From sequence record MZ501103: DNA of 64,000 bases. One strand, 5' to 3'. The notes under the pieces were generated by a model. It had not been told where the DNA came from and did not search any database. It saw only the letters and a list, made by a program, of their open reading frames with translations. The position numbers and the translations under genes were made by a program. Shown piece by piece: positions 484-58,450 of this stretch (its first letter is position 1; every line of letters starts with the position of its first letter). This DNA comes from Escherichia phage SelmaRatti.

Positions 484-1799
484 TGGAAGTATCAAGACCC
501 TATGTTAATACAGTAGATGTTATTGACTTCGGAATAGATAAACGTTTCTTTCGTCTACCTGTTTCGGGAATACTAGCACAAGAGGGCATTACACCTAACG
601 GCCCTCAAATAGCGATCATCAATGCTCTAGAAGACCCTAGACATCGTTTTGTAACGGCGTGTGTATCACGCCGTGTGGGCAAGTCTTTTATAGCGTATAC
701 ACTTGGATTCCTAAAACTTCTGGAACCTAATGTGAAGGTGCTAGTAGTTGCCCCTAACTATTCACTGGCTAATATCGGATGGTCTCAGATTCGTGGTCTT
801 ATTAAGAAGTATGGCCTACAAACCGAACGTGAAAACGCTAAAGATAAAGAGATTGAGTTAGCTAATGGTTCTCTATTTAAACTAGCTTCCGCGGCTCAGG
901 CTGACTCCGCGGTTGGACGTTCATATGATTTTATCATCTTTGACGAGGCGGCAATTTCCGATGTGGGTGGTGATGCCTTCAGGGTTCAGCTGCGTCCTAC
1001 CCTAGATAAACCTAATTCTAAGGCTCTATTTATTTCCACCCCTCGTGGGGGTAACTGGTTTAAAGAGTTTTACGCCTACGGATTTGATGATACGTTGCCT
1101 AACTGGGTGTCTATTCATGGTACATATCGTGATAACCCACGTGCTGACTTGAATGATATTGAGGAAGCACGTCGTACAGTTAGTAAAAACTACTTCCGCC
1201 AGGAATATGAAGCTGACTTCTCTGTATTCGAAGGACAGATATTTGATACCTTTAATGCTATCGATCATGTTAAAGATCTCAAAGGTATGCGTCACTTCTT
1301 TAAAGAAGATGAAGCATTTGAAACATTACTTGGTATTGACGTTGGTTATCGTGATCCTACAGCAGTTCTTACTATTAAATATCATTACGATACGGATACT
1401 TACTATGTATTAGAAGAGTACCAGCAGGCGGAGAAAACTACAGCTCAGCATGCTGCGTATATTCAGCACTGTATAGATCGTTATAAAGTTGATCGTATTT
1501 TTGTTGACTCTGCCGCCGCTCAGTTCCGCCAGGATTTAGCTTACGAGCATGAAATTGCATCGGCTCCAGCTAAAAAATCTGTCCTAGATGGCCTAGCATG
1601 CTTGCAAGCGCTATTCCAGCAGGGCAAGATTATTGTAGATGCTTCATGTTCCTCATTAATCCATGCATTGCAGAACTATAAGTGGGATTTCCAAGAAGGT
1701 GAAGAAAAATTATCCCGTGAAAAACCACGTCATGATGCTAACTCTCACCTTTGTGATGCGCTCCGCTATGGAATTTACTCTATTTCCCGTGGTAAATAA
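483..1799 (+). CDS. terL: terminase large subunit
   Basis: 438 aa; Walker A-like VSRRVGKS and Walker B FIIFDEAA ATPase motifs, C-terminal nuclease-like region; GGAGG RBS 9 nt upstream; size as recalled for T5 TerL. Confidence 0.9.
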   Translation: MEVSRPYVNTVDVIDFGIDKRFFRLPVSGILAQEGITPNGPQIAIINALEDPRHRFVTACVSRRVGKSFIAYTLGFLKLLEPNVKVLVVAPNYSLANIGWSQIRGLIKKYGLQTERENAKDKEIELANGSLFKLASAAQADSAVGRSYDFIIFDEAAISDVGGDAFRVQLRPTLDKPNSKALFISTPRGGNWFKEFYAYGFDDTLPNWVSIHGTYRDNPRADLNDIEEARRTVSKNYFRQEYEADFSVFEGQIFDTFNAIDHVKDLKGMRHFFKEDEAFETLLGIDVGYRDPTAVLTIKYHYDTDTYYVLEEYQQAEKTTAQHAAYIQHCIDRYKVDRIFVDSAAAQFRQDLAYEHEIASAPAKKSVLDGLACLQALFQQGKIIVDASCSSLIHALQNYKWDFQEGEEKLSREKPRHDANSHLCDALRYGIYSISRGK

Positions 1800-1810
1800 A
1801 TAAGTATAGG

Positions 1811-1850
1811 ATGGGATACTACTCAGTTGGTATCCCATTCCTGCATTTTA
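1811..1850 (+). terminator. stem-loop with weak T-tract downstream of terL
   Basis: 9-bp stem atgggatac/gtatcccat with 10-nt loop, followed by tcctgcatttta. Confidence 0.4.
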
Positions 1851-2059
1851 AAATCCCCTTTACAAATTCGATACGATTATGTATACTATATTCATTGATC
1901 GGGAGAACTTCTCCCATAATAGAACGTAAACAAGAAAAATTATTTTGCTATGTTGCCTATATTAGAGGTAAAAATACCCGCCGAGGCAGCATAAAAATCT
2001 GTATAGTAGAGTTAATAATAACCGCATACAGTATTATAATAAAAAAGTTAGGAGCATTA

Positions 2060-2497
2060 ATGGCAACTAATGTAAAGTTTAAACGTGACGCTATTTCAAT
2101 CATGCGTGACGGTATAAAATCTAGGTATAGAAGAGGTGATTGCTGTGCCATTTGTGCTAGTAATGATGACCTAGAGTTGCATCATTATTTTACTGTTTCT
2201 CAATTAGTAAAAAAGTTCGCTAAAGAAAATCACTTAGATTTCACTGATGAGGAAGTTACCCTATCAAATAGGGAAGCATTCTATAAGCAATATGAGCGAG
2301 AGCTGATTGAAGAAGTAGTAACACTCTGCCAGCATCACCACCAACTGTTACATAAGGTGTACACTAAAGAGCCTCCTTTATTTTCTGCTAATAAGCAAAA
2401 AGTGTGGGTTCAAAAGCAGAAAGACAAATTACAGAATCCTCAAGAAAAGACACAAGTCAAGACTGAAACAAAATCAGGATTCGCAAGGTTCTTATAA
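2060..2497 (+). CDS. HNH homing endonuclease
   Basis: CCAIC...LELHHYF...CQHHHQLLH HNH/zinc motif; ATG at 2060 preceded by AGGAG; ORF-track N-terminal extension from 1811 looks non-coding. Confidence 0.75.
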   Translation: MATNVKFKRDAISIMRDGIKSRYRRGDCCAICASNDDLELHHYFTVSQLVKKFAKENHLDFTDEEVTLSNREAFYKQYERELIEEVVTLCQHHHQLLHKVYTKEPPLFSANKQKVWVQKQKDKLQNPQEKTQVKTETKSGFARFL

Positions 2498-3714
2498 TGG
2501 GTTTTAAAAGCTGGATTACTGAAAAGTTAAATCCGGGTCAACGTATTATAAGAGACATGGAACCAGTTAGTCATCGCACTAACCGTAAGCCTTTTACCAC
2601 TGGACAAGCCTACAGTAAAATTGAGATTCTCAATAGAACTGCTAATATGGTTATAGATAGTGCGGCGGAATGTTCTTATACTGTCGGAGATAAATATAAT
2701 ATTGTCACGTACGCTAATGGCGTCAAAACAAAGACTCTAGACACTCTCTTAAATGTACGACCTAATCCATTCATGGATATAAGCACATTCCGTAGACTTG
2801 TAGTCACTGACCTACTTTTTGAAGGTTGTGCATACATCTATTGGGATGGCACATCGCTTTACCATGTCCCGGCTGCTCTTATGCAGGTCGAGGCAGATGC
2901 CAATAAGTTTATCAAAAAATTTATATTTAATAACCAGATAGACTATCGCGTAGATGAGATTATCTTTATAAAGGATAACAGTTACGTGTGTGGCACAAAC
3001 TCTCAAATTTCTGGACAATCTCGTGTTGCTACTGTTATTGACTCTCTTGAGAAGCGTTCTAAAATGCTTAACTTTAAAGAGAAGTTCCTCGATAACGGCA
3101 CTGTGATTGGTCTTATTCTTGAGACGGATGAAATCCTGAACAAGAAATTGCGTGAGCGTAAACAAGAAGAATTACAACTCGATTATAATCCTAGTACTGG
3201 TCAGTCTTCTGTCCTGATTCTAGATGGTGGTATGAAAGCTAAACCGTACTCCCAAATATCCTCTTTTAAAGATCTAGACTTTAAGGAAGACATCGAAGGA
3301 TTTAACAAATCTATCTGTCTAGCCTTTGGAGTTCCGCAAGTACTACTTGATGGTGGTAATAATGCGAATATTCGACCAAACATCGAATTATTCTATTATA
3401 TGACTATCATTCCTATGCTGAACAAACTGACTAGTTCTCTTACTTTCTTTTTTGGTTATAAGATTACTCCTAATACTAAGGAGGTAGCTGCATTAACACC
3501 AGATAAAGAAGCTGAGGCTAAACATTTAACCTCATTGGTTAATAATGGTATTATGACTGGTAACGAAGCTCGTTTAGAGCTGAACCTTGAACCTTTAGAT
3601 GATGAGCAGATGGATAGAATTCGTATTCCTGCTAACGTTGCTGGTTCTGCAACAGGTGTATCTGGTCAAGAAGGTGGTAGACCTCAAGGTTCCACCGAGG
3701 GAGATAAAGAATGA
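2497..3714 (+). CDS. portal protein (pb7-like)
   Basis: 405 aa, position between terminase and prohead protease, TAATG overlap with upstream gene. Confidence 0.85.
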   Translation: MGFKSWITEKLNPGQRIIRDMEPVSHRTNRKPFTTGQAYSKIEILNRTANMVIDSAAECSYTVGDKYNIVTYANGVKTKTLDTLLNVRPNPFMDISTFRRLVVTDLLFEGCAYIYWDGTSLYHVPAALMQVEADANKFIKKFIFNNQIDYRVDEIIFIKDNSYVCGTNSQISGQSRVATVIDSLEKRSKMLNFKEKFLDNGTVIGLILETDEILNKKLRERKQEELQLDYNPSTGQSSVLILDGGMKAKPYSQISSFKDLDFKEDIEGFNKSICLAFGVPQVLLDGGNNANIRPNIELFYYMTIIPMLNKLTSSLTFFFGYKITPNTKEVAALTPDKEAEAKHLTSLVNNGIMTGNEARLELNLEPLDDEQMDRIRIPANVAGSATGVSGQEGGRPQGSTEGDKE

Positions 3715-3971
3715 TTGATTATAATGGTCTAAAGACCATTTTTGGTGAAAAACTGCCAGAATCTCATATCTTCTTTGCTACGGTTGCTGCGCATAAATAT
3801 GTTCCTAGCTATGCTTTTCTGCGTAGAGAACTAGGGCTTTCATCTGCGCATACTAACCGTAAAGTATGGAAGAAATTTGTAGGGGCTTATGGTGCAGCAG
3901 TTCCAACTACTCCTTCTAAAGATTTAACTGCTAGCATGCCTGTTAAAGGGGGGAGCAACGGTGACAGATAG
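3711..3971 (+). CDS. hypothetical protein
   Basis: 86-aa ORF with ATGA overlap to portal stop. Confidence 0.45.
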   Translation: MIDYNGLKTIFGEKLPESHIFFATVAAHKYVPSYAFLRRELGLSSAHTNRKVWKKFVGAYGAAVPTTPSKDLTASMPVKGGSNGDR

Positions 3972-4026
3972 TAATGATTCTACCGCTGGTACAGAGACAG
4001 TTTATCATGTGGCTGGAGTATAATAA

Positions 4027-4659
4027 ATGACACAAGCTGCTATTGACTATAACAAGTTAAAATCAGCACCGGTTCATTTAGACGCTTACATTAAGTCTAT
4101 TGATAGCGAATCCAAAGAGGGTGTTATAAAAATCCGTGGATTCGCTAATACAATTAGTAAAGATCGCGCAGGTGATGTAATTCCTGCTTCTGCGTGGAAA
4201 ACATCTAATGCACTTACTAACTACATGAAAAACCCGATTATTCTTTTCGGACACGACCATCGTCGTCCAATCGGTAAGTGTATTGATCTTAACCCTACTG
4301 AAATGGGTCTCGAAATCGAATGTGAGATCTATGAAAGTTCTGACCCGGCTATCTTTTCACTAATTAAAAACGGTGTACTGAAAACCTTCAGTATCGGATT
4401 CCGCTGCCTAGATGCAGAGTGGGATGAAGCTACTGATATATTTATTATTAAAGATTTAGAACTATACGAAGTTTCGGTAGTTTCTGTACCTTGTAATCAG
4501 GACTCAACGTTCAATATCGCTAAGAGCATGAATGGTCATGATTATACTGAATGGCGTAAATCTTTTACTGCAATAAGTTCTAAAGCTGTCCCAGCTCAAG
4601 AACGTAATCTTTCTGAACTAGAAAAACTTGCGATAGCTTTAGGCTACGTTAAAGAATAA
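4027..4659 (+). CDS. prohead (maturation) protease, HK97 family
   Basis: 210 aa; conserved LFGHDH His region typical of HK97-type prohead proteases; located between portal and capsid genes. Confidence 0.85.
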   Translation: MTQAAIDYNKLKSAPVHLDAYIKSIDSESKEGVIKIRGFANTISKDRAGDVIPASAWKTSNALTNYMKNPIILFGHDHRRPIGKCIDLNPTEMGLEIECEIYESSDPAIFSLIKNGVLKTFSIGFRCLDAEWDEATDIFIIKDLELYEVSVVSVPCNQDSTFNIAKSMNGHDYTEWRKSFTAISSKAVPAQERNLSELEKLAIALGYVKE

Positions 4660-54843: not shown

Positions 54844-54920
54844 GTGGCCAAAAACTAGACTGACAACACAGAAGGCCTGGGTATGAAAATGCTCGGGCCT
54901 TTTCTATCAGAAAATTTTAT

Positions 54921-54949
54921 TTGCCAAATGACTGAGAATAAAGTAAACT
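54921..54949 (+). promoter_or_regulatory. possible promoter (TTGCCA-17-TAAACT) upstream of nrdA
   Basis: weaker match to sigma70 consensus. Confidence 0.35.
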
Positions 54950-54987
54950 ATTTCCTAAATCCTGATAACTATAAAAAGGAAAGCCAA

Positions 54988-57900
54988 ATGAGCCATCGCA
55001 TTGAAAAAGTAATTAAACGTGACGGTACTGTAGAAGACTTTGCTCCTGAAAAACTCAATGGTTGGGCAGAGTATGGTTGCAAAACAGTTGATGTAAGTTG
55101 GTCAGCCATTACTATGGCTGCTCAAAAAACCCTACCTAAAGGGGTTGTAGATTCCGACACTCTTATGGACGCATTAATTAAAGCTGCTGAAAGTCTTATC
55201 AAAGATAACCCAGCATACGATGTGCCAGCAAAGGAATTACGTCTTGCGCAAATGCGTAAGCGCCTTTATGACTCTTTCGAACCACCTTCTCTACGCTTCT
55301 TCCATGACCACATGGTTAGCGTAGGTACATGGGAAGACATGAGTGCATGGATTACCGATGAGCAATTTGAAGCTCTGAATCAGGTTATCGACCATGATCG
55401 TGACCGTCTTTTTACTAGTGGTGGGCTGAAGCAGTTCTTTGATAAGTATTCACGTCGTAACATAGCCACTGGTGAAATTTACGAAACCCCTCAATTCGCC
55501 TATATGGGTATGGCAATGGCGATGTTATCTCAACCTAACTGGACAATTCTAGATGCAATCGATCTCTACAATGCAATGTCGCTCCACAAGATCAACGTTC
55601 CTACGCCGCCATTGGTTGGCTTGCGCTCTAGTGACCGTGGATTTGCTAGTTGCTGCCTCGTGGATTCCACTGACACATTGGATTCAATCGACACAGCAGA
55701 GCACATCGTCTTCAAAATGGTCGCAGCCAGAGCGGGAATCGGGTATCATCTTGAAAGCAGATCAATTGCTGATCCGGTGCGAAATGGGGCATTCCCGCAT
55801 TCCGGAAAACTGCCATATTATCGACACATTGACCGCTCAGTAAAGGCCAATACTCAGCAAACTCGTGGTGGTTCTGCTACAGTGTCTTATCCATACTTCG
55901 ACCCTGAAATCATTCAATTGATGCAGGTTAAGCAACAACGTGCTACAGATGAGAATAAAATCGATAAGATGGATTATTCTCTGAGCTTTAACAATCTTTT
56001 GTTAAAACGTTATCTTAAAAACGAAGATATTACGCTAATGTCATACTTCTATGCTCCAGAAGTTCATGAAGCGTTTTATAGTGATGACGAGGCTAAATTT
56101 GAAGAAATCTACGTGGCAGCGGAGAAACGTGTGGCATCTCTTACAAAAATCGACCACGAAGGAAAAACAGTTCCAGCAGCTCCTAAAGTCTCTGCAAAAG
56201 AAATCCTAGATACTTGGCTACGTATCCGAATGGAAACAGGACGTATGTACGCTCACCACATCGGGGAATCTAATCGTCACGGTAACTTTCTTGATCCAAT
56301 CCGTATGACTAACCTTTGTGTAGCTCCAGAAACAAAAATTTTAACCAAAAATGGTAACATAGAGATTATTGATTTAGTTGGTAAAGAAGTAGAGATTTGG
56401 AACGGGCAAGAATGGTCAACAGTTATCCCTGCTAAAACTGGGGAAGCTCAGGAGTTGATGAAAATCACATTCTCTGATGGATCTACTATTGAATCTACTC
56501 TTTATCATAAGTTCTACCACCAGCCCAAATATGTAAGAGAGGATCGTAGTACCTCCTTCAAACAGGGTCTAGAAGAGGTACGAGCAGTAGACTTGCAAGT
56601 AGGTATGAAAATGCCTAAATTTAGTAATCCTATTGTAGATCATGGAAATATGGTACTAAAATCTCCTTATACTAACGGTTTCTTCACTGGAGATGGAACT
56701 TATGGAAGACATGGAGAACCTAAGCTGTACTTCTATGAAAAAGGAGGCAAACTACCATTAGTGGATAAAATTGACGCAAAGATTCAGGGAAGTGGATTAC
56801 TGGACAGCACAGGTAGACTGAGTTATATTGTTAAGTCTGATTTAATGCCGAAGTATTTTGTACCTGGCCCAGAATACACTATTGATAGCCGTATCAAATG
56901 GTTAGAGGGATATTTAGATGCAGATGGCTGCATACAGAAAAATGGCACAACCCCTAGTATTGTGGTTGCTTCGGCAGAGCCTGATTTTCTAAGTAAAGTG
57001 AAGGATTTGTTACTAGAATTGGGGATTACTAGCAAGATTATTTTAGGACGCCAAGAAGGTGACTACGAGTTACCAGATGGTACTGGTAGTAGTAGTAAAC
57101 TATACCACTGCAAGGAGACTAGTAGGCTTATTGTGGGGAGTAGTGGCTTCTGGAAACTTAAAGATTTAGGACTCTCTTTGGATAAAGAGAAACTCTTAAA
57201 CCTAACACGCCCCAATAGAGACGCAACCCGTTTTGTAACTGTAACTAACGTTGAGTTTACTGGTCGTATTAGTGATACCTATTGCTTTACAGAACCTAAA
57301 TTAAACTTGGGTGTATTTAATGGCATTTTAGCTGGTAACTGTGTAGAGATTACTCAGCCTACACGCCCGTTCCACCACATCACAGAGCTGTATAAGACAA
57401 AAGAGCAGCTTGATCAAATGAAGCCGGAGGATATTGGTGAAGTATCTCTGTGTAACTTAGGTGGTGTTGTACTTGGACGCATGGAATCTCTGGCTGAGTG
57501 GGAAAAAACTTGCTACATCCTTCTGAAATTCGTTGATACAATTATTGAAATTCAGGATTATCCGTTCCCAACTATGGAATATACGGCTAAGAAACGTCGT
57601 AATGTTGGTATTGGCCTGATGAACGCAGCAGGTGCAATGGCAGCAGAAGGTCTGGCTTATGAAGGTATTGAAGCCCGTAACTGGATTCACCGTGAGGCTG
57701 AAAAACTGTCTTACTTCCTGCATAAAGCCTCTGTACGCCTAGCTAAAGAACAGGGCGCATGTGAGTGGTTTGATCGTACTAAACCATCTAAAGGAATTCT
57801 GGTAATCGACACTTACAAGAAAACTGTTGATGAACTGGTATCCGTAGGTCTAGAAATGGATTGGGAATCTCTGCGTGCAGATATTCTGAAATACGGTATG

Positions 57901-58344
57901 CGTAACTCTGTTCTGACTGCGCAGATGCCTGGAGAAAGCTCTTCTGTACTATTGGGTGTTACCAACTCAATTGAGCCACCTCGTAAGATTGTATCTATCA
58001 AGGGTAGTGCAGTGAATAAAGTAATTGCAATTGCTCCAGGTGCAACCGATTGGGATACTCTCATGAGCTATAAACTGGCCTATGATATTGATCGCACTGA
58101 GTGGATCAAGTGGAACGCCGTTTACCAAAAATTCTTGAGTCAGTCATCAAGTTTCCAGATGTATTATGATTACTCTAAATTCGAGAATGAAATCATCCCT
58201 GGCCCAGTAGTAGTTCGTGACTTTATGACTGCGGTTAAGTATGGTATAAAAACCTGGTATTATGCTAACTTTAACACTGCGAATGGTGGAGGAGCTGGTG
58301 AAGAGGCGGCAACAGGTTGTGCATCAGGCGGTTGTCAGTTATAA
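54988..58344 (+). CDS. nrdA: ribonucleoside-diphosphate reductase alpha subunit, interrupted by an intein
   Basis: N-terminal ATP-cone (VIKRDGTVEDF); active-site NxCxE split as TNL | intein | CVEI; C-terminal Cys pair; start set at ATG 54988 with AAGGAAAG RBS. Confidence 0.9.
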   Translation: MSHRIEKVIKRDGTVEDFAPEKLNGWAEYGCKTVDVSWSAITMAAQKTLPKGVVDSDTLMDALIKAAESLIKDNPAYDVPAKELRLAQMRKRLYDSFEPPSLRFFHDHMVSVGTWEDMSAWITDEQFEALNQVIDHDRDRLFTSGGLKQFFDKYSRRNIATGEIYETPQFAYMGMAMAMLSQPNWTILDAIDLYNAMSLHKINVPTPPLVGLRSSDRGFASCCLVDSTDTLDSIDTAEHIVFKMVAARAGIGYHLESRSIADPVRNGAFPHSGKLPYYRHIDRSVKANTQQTRGGSATVSYPYFDPEIIQLMQVKQQRATDENKIDKMDYSLSFNNLLLKRYLKNEDITLMSYFYAPEVHEAFYSDDEAKFEEIYVAAEKRVASLTKIDHEGKTVPAAPKVSAKEILDTWLRIRMETGRMYAHHIGESNRHGNFLDPIRMTNLCVAPETKILTKNGNIEIIDLVGKEVEIWNGQEWSTVIPAKTGEAQELMKITFSDGSTIESTLYHKFYHQPKYVREDRSTSFKQGLEEVRAVDLQVGMKMPKFSNPIVDHGNMVLKSPYTNGFFTGDGTYGRHGEPKLYFYEKGGKLPLVDKIDAKIQGSGLLDSTGRLSYIVKSDLMPKYFVPGPEYTIDSRIKWLEGYLDADGCIQKNGTTPSIVVASAEPDFLSKVKDLLLELGITSKIILGRQEGDYELPDGTGSSSKLYHCKETSRLIVGSSGFWKLKDLGLSLDKEKLLNLTRPNRDATRFVTVTNVEFTGRISDTYCFTEPKLNLGVFNGILAGNCVEITQPTRPFHHITELYKTKEQLDQMKPEDIGEVSLCNLGGVVLGRMESLAEWEKTCYILLKFVDTIIEIQDYPFPTMEYTAKKRRNVGIGLMNAAGAMAAEGLAYEGIEARNWIHREAEKLSYFLHKASVRLAKEQGACEWFDRTKPSKGILVIDTYKKTVDELVSVGLEMDWESLRADILKYGMRNSVLTAQMPGESSSVLLGVTNSIEPPRKIVSIKGSAVNKVIAIAPGATDWDTLMSYKLAYDIDRTEWIKWNAVYQKFLSQSSSFQMYYDYSKFENEIIPGPVVVRDFMTAVKYGIKTWYYANFNTANGGGAGEEAATGCASGGCQL
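56317..57339 (+). mobile_element. intein with LAGLIDADG homing endonuclease domain inside NrdA (341 aa)
   Basis: Starts CVAPETKIL, LAGLIDADG-like NGFFTGDGTYG and WLEGYLDADGCIQ, block F-like DTYCFTEP, ends NGILAGN followed by Cys. Confidence 0.8.
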
Positions 58345-58353
58345 TAAAAACAA

Positions 58354-58380
58354 GGAGATCTTCGGGTCTCCTTTTTCTTT
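58354..58380 (+). terminator. rho-independent terminator after nrdA
   Basis: stem GGAGATC/GGTCTCC with UUCG tetraloop followed by TTTTTCTTT. Confidence 0.8.
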
Positions 58381-58390
58381 GAAATTTTAC

Positions 58391-58419
58391 TTGCTAATCG
58401 CTACCAGATTTGCTATAAT
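58391..58419 (+). promoter_or_regulatory. sigma70-type promoter (TTGCTA-17-TATAAT) upstream of nrdB
   Basis: -35 58391-58396, -10 58414-58419; follows nrdA terminator. Confidence 0.65.
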
Positions 58420-58450
58420 ATTCCTGAAATAGTGAGAAAGAGGAAAATCA

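Follow-up and report, generated by a model that had tools for sequence, protein, structure and literature searches.

A probable class 1 intein with a LAGLIDADG endonuclease domain and a Gly-Asn terminus at the thiyl-radical cysteine of NrdA in a T5-like Escherichia phage

The window analyzed here, a 64,000-nucleotide stretch of Escherichia phage SelmaRatti (sequence record MZ501103), contains at positions 56317-57339 of the + strand an in-frame insert in the ribonucleotide reductase (RNR) gene nrdA. The insert has the anatomy, the homologs and the fold of an intein, shows a precise presence/absence polymorphism among related phages and is under purifying selection. Taken together with the predicted structure, its sequence features very probably identify it as a class 1 intein with a double-motif LAGLIDADG endonuclease, situated just N-terminal of the NrdA thiyl-radical cysteine. 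This intein would be expected to splice, and its endonuclease to cleave. The intein itself, its insertion site and the kind of non-canonical terminus that it displays are already known, documented and annotated.

Results and Discussion

The nrdA gene and its interruption

Megablast identities of 95-96% assign the window to a T5-like phage of the genus Tequintavirus, in which nrdA occurs in the gene order phoH, small ORF, nrdA, nrdB. The nrdA reading frame is open from 54883 and extends on the + strand to 58344, encoding 1153 aa. The likely start is at 54988 (MSHRIEK), which yields a product of 1118 aa and is supported by an AAGGA element 8 nt upstream and by agreement with the N-terminus of E. 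coli R1; GenBank places the start of the NrdA protein at 54928. The host protein is recovered as a class Ia RNR alpha subunit by NCBIfam TIGR02506 (569 bits against a cut-off of 341), and the E. coli-type NrdA model of the same resource matches ORF residues 42-481 to profile positions 6-441, while the match to Pfam Ribonuc_red_lgC spans the interruption (E 1e-112). The N-extein (54988-56316, + strand) comprises the ATP-cone, the all-alpha domain and the first part of the barrel, and ends in P-I-R-M-T-N-L. The C-extein (57340-58344, + strand) begins with the +1 cysteine (Cys+1, 57340-57342) in C-V-E-I-T-Q-P and runs to the stop codon, containing the YY pair and the C-terminal Cys pair. When 600 nt of the N-extein were used to search E. 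coli genomes, no DNA match was returned.

When the insert is removed, the resulting 777-aa product, counted from the probable start, is colinear with E. coli R1 and aligns with it end to end (E 1e-142 in a PDB sequence search). The segment T-N-L-C-V-E falls on S436-N437-L438-C439-L440-E441 of R1, as counted from the printed alignment, and the residue following the insert is thus the thiyl-radical cysteine, C439. The first-pass annotation had proposed both this identity of the +1 residue and the restoration of N-L-C-V-E upon removal, and the alignment of N437 through E441 bears out both. The spliced NrdA likewise aligns with R1 at the C225/C462 and Y730/Y731 pairs and at the Cys pair of the C-terminus. 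The inserted segment is lacking in 441 of 445 related records.

Anatomy and identification of the insert

The intein consists of 341 aa (37.9 kDa), from Cys1 to Asn341, and corresponds to ORF residues 479-819; the boundaries given in the first-pass annotation proved exact to the base, and the motifs that it listed, from CVAPETKIL at the N-terminus to NGILAGN before CVEITQP, are all present. The features described below all lie on the + strand. Block A (56317-56355) reads C1-VAPETKILTKNG and supplies the N-terminal nucleophile Cys1, and block B (56479-56517; GSTIESTLYHKFY) contains Thr61 and His64 in a T-x-x-H arrangement that shows little or no variation among the clade of related inteins. The first LAGLIDADG motif (56668-56703; YTNGFFTGDGTY) includes (G)FFTGDG at intein residues 122-127 with the acidic Asp126, and the second (56893-56934; IKWLEGYLDADGCI) includes (G)YLDADG at residues 199-204 with the acidic Asp203. 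Block F (57265-57297) reads RISDTYCFTEP, with DTYCFTEP at residues 320-327, and has Cys323 where the canonical block F has Asp (VYDL). The end of block F together with block G (57298-57339; KLNLGVFNGILAGN) carries Asn330 at the position of the block-F His and ends in NGILAGN (residues 335-341), with Gly340 as the penultimate and Asn341 as the terminal residue; CVEITQP follows directly, such that Asn341 adjoins Cys+1.

Profile searches support this anatomy. NCBIfam intein_Nterm (TIGR01445) matches intein residues 1-67 at 34.0 bits against a cut-off of 24.5, and Pfam LAGLIDADG_3 matches residues 194-280 at 50.7 bits against a cut-off of 22.5 (E 2e-13), in keeping with the proposed combination of an intein and a LAGLIDADG endonuclease. 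The NCBIfam C-terminal intein models gave zero matches to the insert at E <= 1, Pfam Intein_splicing did not match it, a phmmer search of the PDB with the intein alone recovered nothing significant, and PHROGs gave zero matches to the intein. An AlphaFold2 model, built from an alignment with 21 metagenomic relatives, has a mean pLDDT of 85.3 and a pTM of 0.85, with high confidence across most of the length of the endonuclease domain. Foldseek searches of the PDB with this model retrieved full-length matches to the TliVMA intein (E 4e-15), PI-SceI, PI-PfuI, the PhoVMA intein and PI-TkoII, below which ranked domain-level matches to I-DmoI-type endonucleases and mini-inteins. The profile, homology and fold matches of the insert are far beyond chance.

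In terms of intein classes, the in-frame insertion, Cys1 within block A, the T-x-x-H of block B, the terminal Asn followed by Cys+1 and the HINT fold of the AlphaFold2 model all correspond to class 1, whereas the penultimate (G:6) His and the block-F His of that class are replaced by Gly340 and Asn330. The two motifs with their acidic residues, the match to the family profile and the Foldseek similarity to I-DmoI and to the endonuclease domain of PI-SceI are those of a two-motif monomeric LAGLIDADG homing endonuclease. On account of the block-F Cys, assignment to class 3 was also considered and rejected: Cys1 is present, and the Trp (B:12) and Thr (G:5) of the Trp-Cys-Thr triplet are absent, the respective residues being Phe66 and Ala339. 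Neither a group I intron nor an endonuclease gene standing on its own fits the continuous frame and the HINT fold, and both were rejected.

The Gly-Asn terminus as a trait of a wider clade

A tblastn search with the intein recovered homologous inteins in 338 phage records (E down to 1e-100), located at the N-L/C-x-E site, where the slash marks the point of insertion. To give a set of 15, the window intein was aligned with fourteen representatives, which come from phages of Proteus, Acinetobacter, Staphylococcus, Aeromonas, Vibrio (three lineages including ICP1), Rheinheimera, Corynebacterium, Pectobacterium and Caulobacter/Brevundimonas, and from Bacillus phage phi3T. All 15 are inserted at N-L/C-x-E and retain Cys1 and Cys+1. 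They further share a block A of the form CV(A/T/S)xxT, a block B with T-x-(Y/H/W)-H, an aromatic-Cys pair in block F (phi3T having Asp in place of Cys) and a block G of the form F-x-G-(I/L/Y)-x-x-x-(N/Q). At the penultimate position, 14 of these inteins have Gly, the remaining one has Met and none has His, and the last residue is Asn in eight and Gln in seven. Additional, metagenomic relatives come from a word-indexed protein search (25 matches, mostly fragments under 600 aa). These end in G-N or G-Q, with a single Lys-Gln exception, and include natural mini-inteins of ~130-155 aa at the same NrdA site, as well as NrdB inteins with 34-36% identity to the window intein (P0002 and P0003).

Alignment of the splicing-domain profile of this clade with the Pyrococcus CDC21-1 intein (6rpq) places Cys323 opposite the block-F Asp (VYDL) and Asn330 opposite the block-F His (HHNF). 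With Gly340 and Asn330, the window intein therefore lacks both of the histidines that are usually credited with assisting Asn cyclization, and the third step of splicing could be slow. The block-F His position is variable in the clade (His, Gly, Asn or Ser), with about half of the relatives keeping His.

These departures have parallels in the literature. Neither His is required in all inteins, the block-F His being dispensable in some, and in ~5% of working inteins the penultimate position is taken by a residue other than His, with the restoration of His helping some of these inteins and harming others (PMC4031507). At the block-F Asp position, Cys ranks second in frequency among residues, and for the RNR intein of Chilo iridescent virus splicing is better when the native Gln is present than when Asn stands in its place (PMC4031507). 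The first-pass annotation had correctly noted Gly in place of the usual penultimate His and had taken it to suggest impaired splicing or an atypical C-terminal cleavage chemistry. This interpretation is not supported, as Gly is near-universal and His absent at this position in the aligned clade, of which one member, gp203 of ICP1, is described as spliced. From these comparisons, the Gly-Asn end is best regarded as a clade-wide trait and a recognized type of variation rather than a lesion of this copy.

Distribution, selection and mobility

Among phage records matching nrdA, the intein is present in only four of 445, which represent three phages: SP3 (two records), Kenya-K36 and Kenya-K42. In protein and DNA alignments alike, six intein-less T5-like alleles (HildyBeyeler, slur09, chee24, Kenya-K20, Tennessee and EH7) read MTNL/CVEITQP without a gap. 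The intein-less junction DNA is ...ATGACAAACCTT/TGTGTTGAA... or, in the HildyBeyeler or T5 form, ...CGTATGACAAACCTT/TGTGTTGAAATTACTCAGCC....

Across the three T5-like copies the dN/dS of the intein is 0.08-0.16 (Nei-Gojobori, from 14-19 substitutions). Proteus phage PM135 has an intein of 53% identity in an intact precursor ORF of 1122 aa, with splice-site residues identical to those of the window intein and the same LNLGVFNGILAGN/C end. Between carriers, nucleotide identity is 98.1-98.6% in the intein, 96.4-97.3% in the N-extein and 90.6% in the C-extein, and the window C-extein is 97.4% identical to that of the intein-less HildyBeyeler, far closer than to those of the other carriers. The NrdA intein is thus found in differing nrdA contexts, a pattern that homing or recombination would be expected to produce.

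A search of the flanks for a long co-conversion tract specific to carriers found none. Only at the nearest synonymous site on either side, 56310 and 57345, do the window and SP3 share a state that neither K36 nor any of the intein-less alleles has, and every T5-like phage has mosaic flanks. Evidence for recent homing is indirect, and activity of the NrdA intein endonuclease is therefore plausible but unproven.

A proposed splicing pathway and its alternatives

In the pathway that we favor, the precursor would be translated as a single chain of 125.7 kDa, inactive because the equivalents of N437, C439 and E441 are held 341 residues apart. Cys1 would then form a thioester with the assistance of Thr61 and His64 of block B, and Cys+1, the future radical cysteine, would attack it to generate a branched intermediate. 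Cyclization of Asn341, a step which would have to proceed with neither the penultimate nor the block-F His, would free the 37.9-kDa intein, and an S-to-N shift would produce an 87.8-kDa NrdA with N-L-C-V-E restored. The free intein would be expected to cut the ATGACAAACCTT/TGTGTTGAA junction in the intein-less nrdA of T5-like phages that infect the same cell, and the cut allele would gain the intein through repair copying, i.e., homing. The indirect evidence, which comprises the dN/dS values, the conservation in PM135, the intact exteins and the ICP1 homolog, favors a functional intein.

Of the alternatives, the one to be taken most seriously, though we consider it unlikely, is that the intein splices while its endonuclease is inactive, the element having been maintained in a small number of T5-like phages through vertical inheritance and ordinary recombination, not through homing. 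Its very low frequency (four of 445 records) would fit such a history, as would the lack of a clear long co-conversion tract amid flanks that are mosaic in all lineages. Moreover, some members of the clade have degenerate motifs or are mini-inteins, which indicates that loss of the endonuclease does happen there. In the window intein, however, Asp126 and Asp203 are kept in both motifs, the domain is modeled confidently over most of its length, the dN/dS of the whole intein is low, and carriers resemble one another more in the intein, which sits on different extein backgrounds, than in the exteins.

Considerably less probable is the proposal that splicing itself is impaired or dead, with the His losses blocking Asn cyclization, nrdA being in effect a pseudogene and dNTPs being furnished by the host RNR and NrdD. 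Both of the step-3 histidines are indeed replaced, and T5-like phages also encode the anaerobic nrdD; with the host enzyme also available to draw on, NrdA, and with it splicing, may be under relaxed selection, weaker than a single-copy essential gene would experience. The ClpP intein of Chlamydomonas reportedly has a Gly-Asn end and fails to splice until the Gly is changed to His. It is cited as a case without the penultimate His, and putting His back improves splicing in some inteins of this kind (PMC4031507). Against this stand both exteins, which are intact, and the catalytic residues, all of which are kept; the Gly is conserved in a broad and old clade (14 of 15, along with the metagenomic relatives), the splicing residues of PM135 are identical despite only 53% intein identity, and the dN/dS lies well below 1. 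Functional inteins without these histidines are documented (PMC4031507), and the clade includes ICP1 gp203, described as spliced (PMC10448857). A non-intein reading, in which the insert is a domain that was inserted in frame and that the mature enzyme retains, or else an endonuclease ORF borne by an intron and by chance in frame, draws on nothing but the uninterrupted reading frame. It is effectively refuted by the separation of N437 from C439/E441 in the active site, by a HINT-plus-LAGLIDADG fold like that of PI-SceI, and by the residues of blocks A, B, F and G with Cys1, Asn341 and Cys+1.

Relationship to known systems and prior annotation

The identical protein, with its start at 54928, is available in GenBank as QXV84363.1 and is already named an intein-containing precursor. 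The proximity of this accession to that of the HildyBeyeler NrdA (QXV80073.1) suggests an origin in the BASEL collection, whose authors state that inteins were precisely identified during annotation (PMC8594841). The closest counterpart is the same intein allele in SP3, Kenya-K36 and Kenya-K42, which has 97.7-98.8% protein identity, the same site and the GN terminus. The window version differs from it by one extra Ser (GSSSK as opposed to GSSK) and a few substitutions, and lies on a C-extein background like that of HildyBeyeler rather than that of SP3/K36; SP3 nrdA additionally has a second insert which is absent from the window. The ORFs of 1100-1400 aa in carriers are labeled simply as RNR (SP3, Kenya-K36) or are unannotated (Proteus phage PM135).

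More distantly, comparison was made with ICP1 gp203 and related phage RNR inteins, namely those of Proteus PM135, Staphylococcus Twort-like, Acinetobacter, Rheinheimera, Corynebacterium, Pectobacterium and Caulobacter phages and the bnrdE inteins of SPbeta/phi3T. These share with the window intein the N-L/C-x-E site, the HINT-plus-LAGLIDADG organization, the penultimate Gly and the motif series CVAPET...T-x-Y-H...TYCFTE...FNGILTG(N/Q), but have only 23-53% identity to it. Unlike the window intein, those of the Caulobacter phages have lost LAGLIDADG motif 1, and are entered in the corresponding records as intein mature peptides; the phi3T intein has Asp at the block-F position occupied by Cys in the window. 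The SPbeta bnrdE intein was reportedly demonstrated to splice, and is not counted as evidence here. Among the intein sites of RNRs, the point of insertion at the thiyl-radical Cys of NrdA has been described as the one most often occupied (PMC2677866). Barth et al. noted that, in ICP1 and other phages, nrdA harbors LAGLIDADG endonucleases encoded within inteins, with the gp203 intein described as spliced out of a functional NrdA (PMC10448857).

Reviewed inteins that lack the penultimate His or end in Gln show the same departure from His-Asn with splicing retained, making alternative assistance of Asn/Gln cyclization an established phenomenon (PMC4031507); the window intein, likened to them by description, is additionally without the block-F His. 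PI-SceI, TliVMA and PI-PfuI have the same predicted two-domain fold (Foldseek E 4e-15 to 2e-11, TM ~0.6), but are only 9-17% identical to the window intein, reside in other host proteins, have the canonical His-Asn and are larger (360-540 as against 341 aa).

Implications

For annotation, the value of these observations lies in the several carriers whose nrdA ORF is without an intein label. To intein enzymology they offer a compact, mesophilic example from an E. coli phage that is without both assisting histidines and has a block-F Cys, and for phage population genetics they provide a marker of horizontal exchange at a frequency under 1% among T5-like phages. In the T5-like/Proteus-phage branch the splice center combines three cysteines (Cys1, the block-F Cys323 and Cys+1) with neither assisting His. 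By analogy with disulfide-controlled inteins, precedents for which are cited in PMC4031507, inteins of this branch might conceivably splice conditionally, for example through a thiol redox gate formed by a Cys-Cys disulfide, although we regard this as a long shot. If true, maturation of the aerobic RNR would be tied to the intracellular redox or oxygen status, and the intein would be a post-translational switch, not a purely selfish passenger.

Conserved features and relatives of the intein

Between the standard intein blocks A and B, residues 25-34 of the window intein (56389-56418) form a motif, V-x-(V/I)-W-N-G-x-E-(W/F)-S, which lies outside the set of standard intein blocks and in which W28, N29, G30 and S34 are nearly invariant throughout the clade. 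The metagenomic proteins P0002, P0003 and P0010 are RNR beta subunits (Pfam PF00268) that also harbour inteins; these inteins share 34-36% identity with the window intein and terminate in FNGILTGQ, immediately followed by serine. Hence, a single intein clade is found in both subunits of class I RNRs. An intein-containing member that is unannotated in the public record is seen in Proteus phage PM135 (MG030347.1), where positions 1127-4495 constitute an intact nrdA ORF of 1122 aa, the label "RNR large subunit" being attached only to a 207-nt CDS (860-1066) upstream of it.

Variation in nrdA and its flanks among T5-like phages

The records disagree on the annotated start codon of nrdA (window 54883-54990). 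The reading frame is open from 54883, and the annotated starts are 54928 in the GenBank entry of the window precursor (QXV84363.1) and the equivalent of 54988 in Salmonella phage SP3. The ATG at 54988 has AAGGA 8 nt upstream and matches the N-terminus of E. coli NrdA (R1) in the alignment.

At the other end of the gene, the interior of the C-extein holds a mosaic breakpoint. The final ~500 nt of the window nrdA (57840-58344) are 97-98% identical to the intein-less alleles of HildyBeyeler, chee24 and Tennessee, as against only about 84% to SP3 and Kenya-K36, which likewise carry the intein, with identity to the latter two falling to 78% over the last 300 nt. The protein-level differences in this region mirror the nucleotide pattern (…NAVYQKFLSQSSSFQMY versus …VATMQKFFSQSISTNMY).

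The SP3 NrdA (MG387042.1) reaches a length of 1422 aa on account of a second insert, in frame and 304 aa long (3479-4390), whose position corresponds in the window to the junction of 55858 and 55859, after ...KANTQQ. This insert reads CYSADTEVL...HTTVCGN, followed by Ser, thus also ending in Gly-Asn, and occupies a site between NTQQ and (T/S)RGGSAT; it is absent from the window and from every other allele examined. Its match to the intein_Nterm profile is weak (14.3 bits, under the cut-off of 24.5 bits), and it is probably another intein, distinct from the first.

Further, the nrdA-nrdB spacer of HildyBeyeler and Kenya-K20 contains a gene, free-standing and about 516 nt long, for a putative homing endonuclease, the equivalent spacer of the window (58345-58450) being only 106 nt long. 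The RNR operon of the T5-like phages is therefore host to several independent mobile elements.
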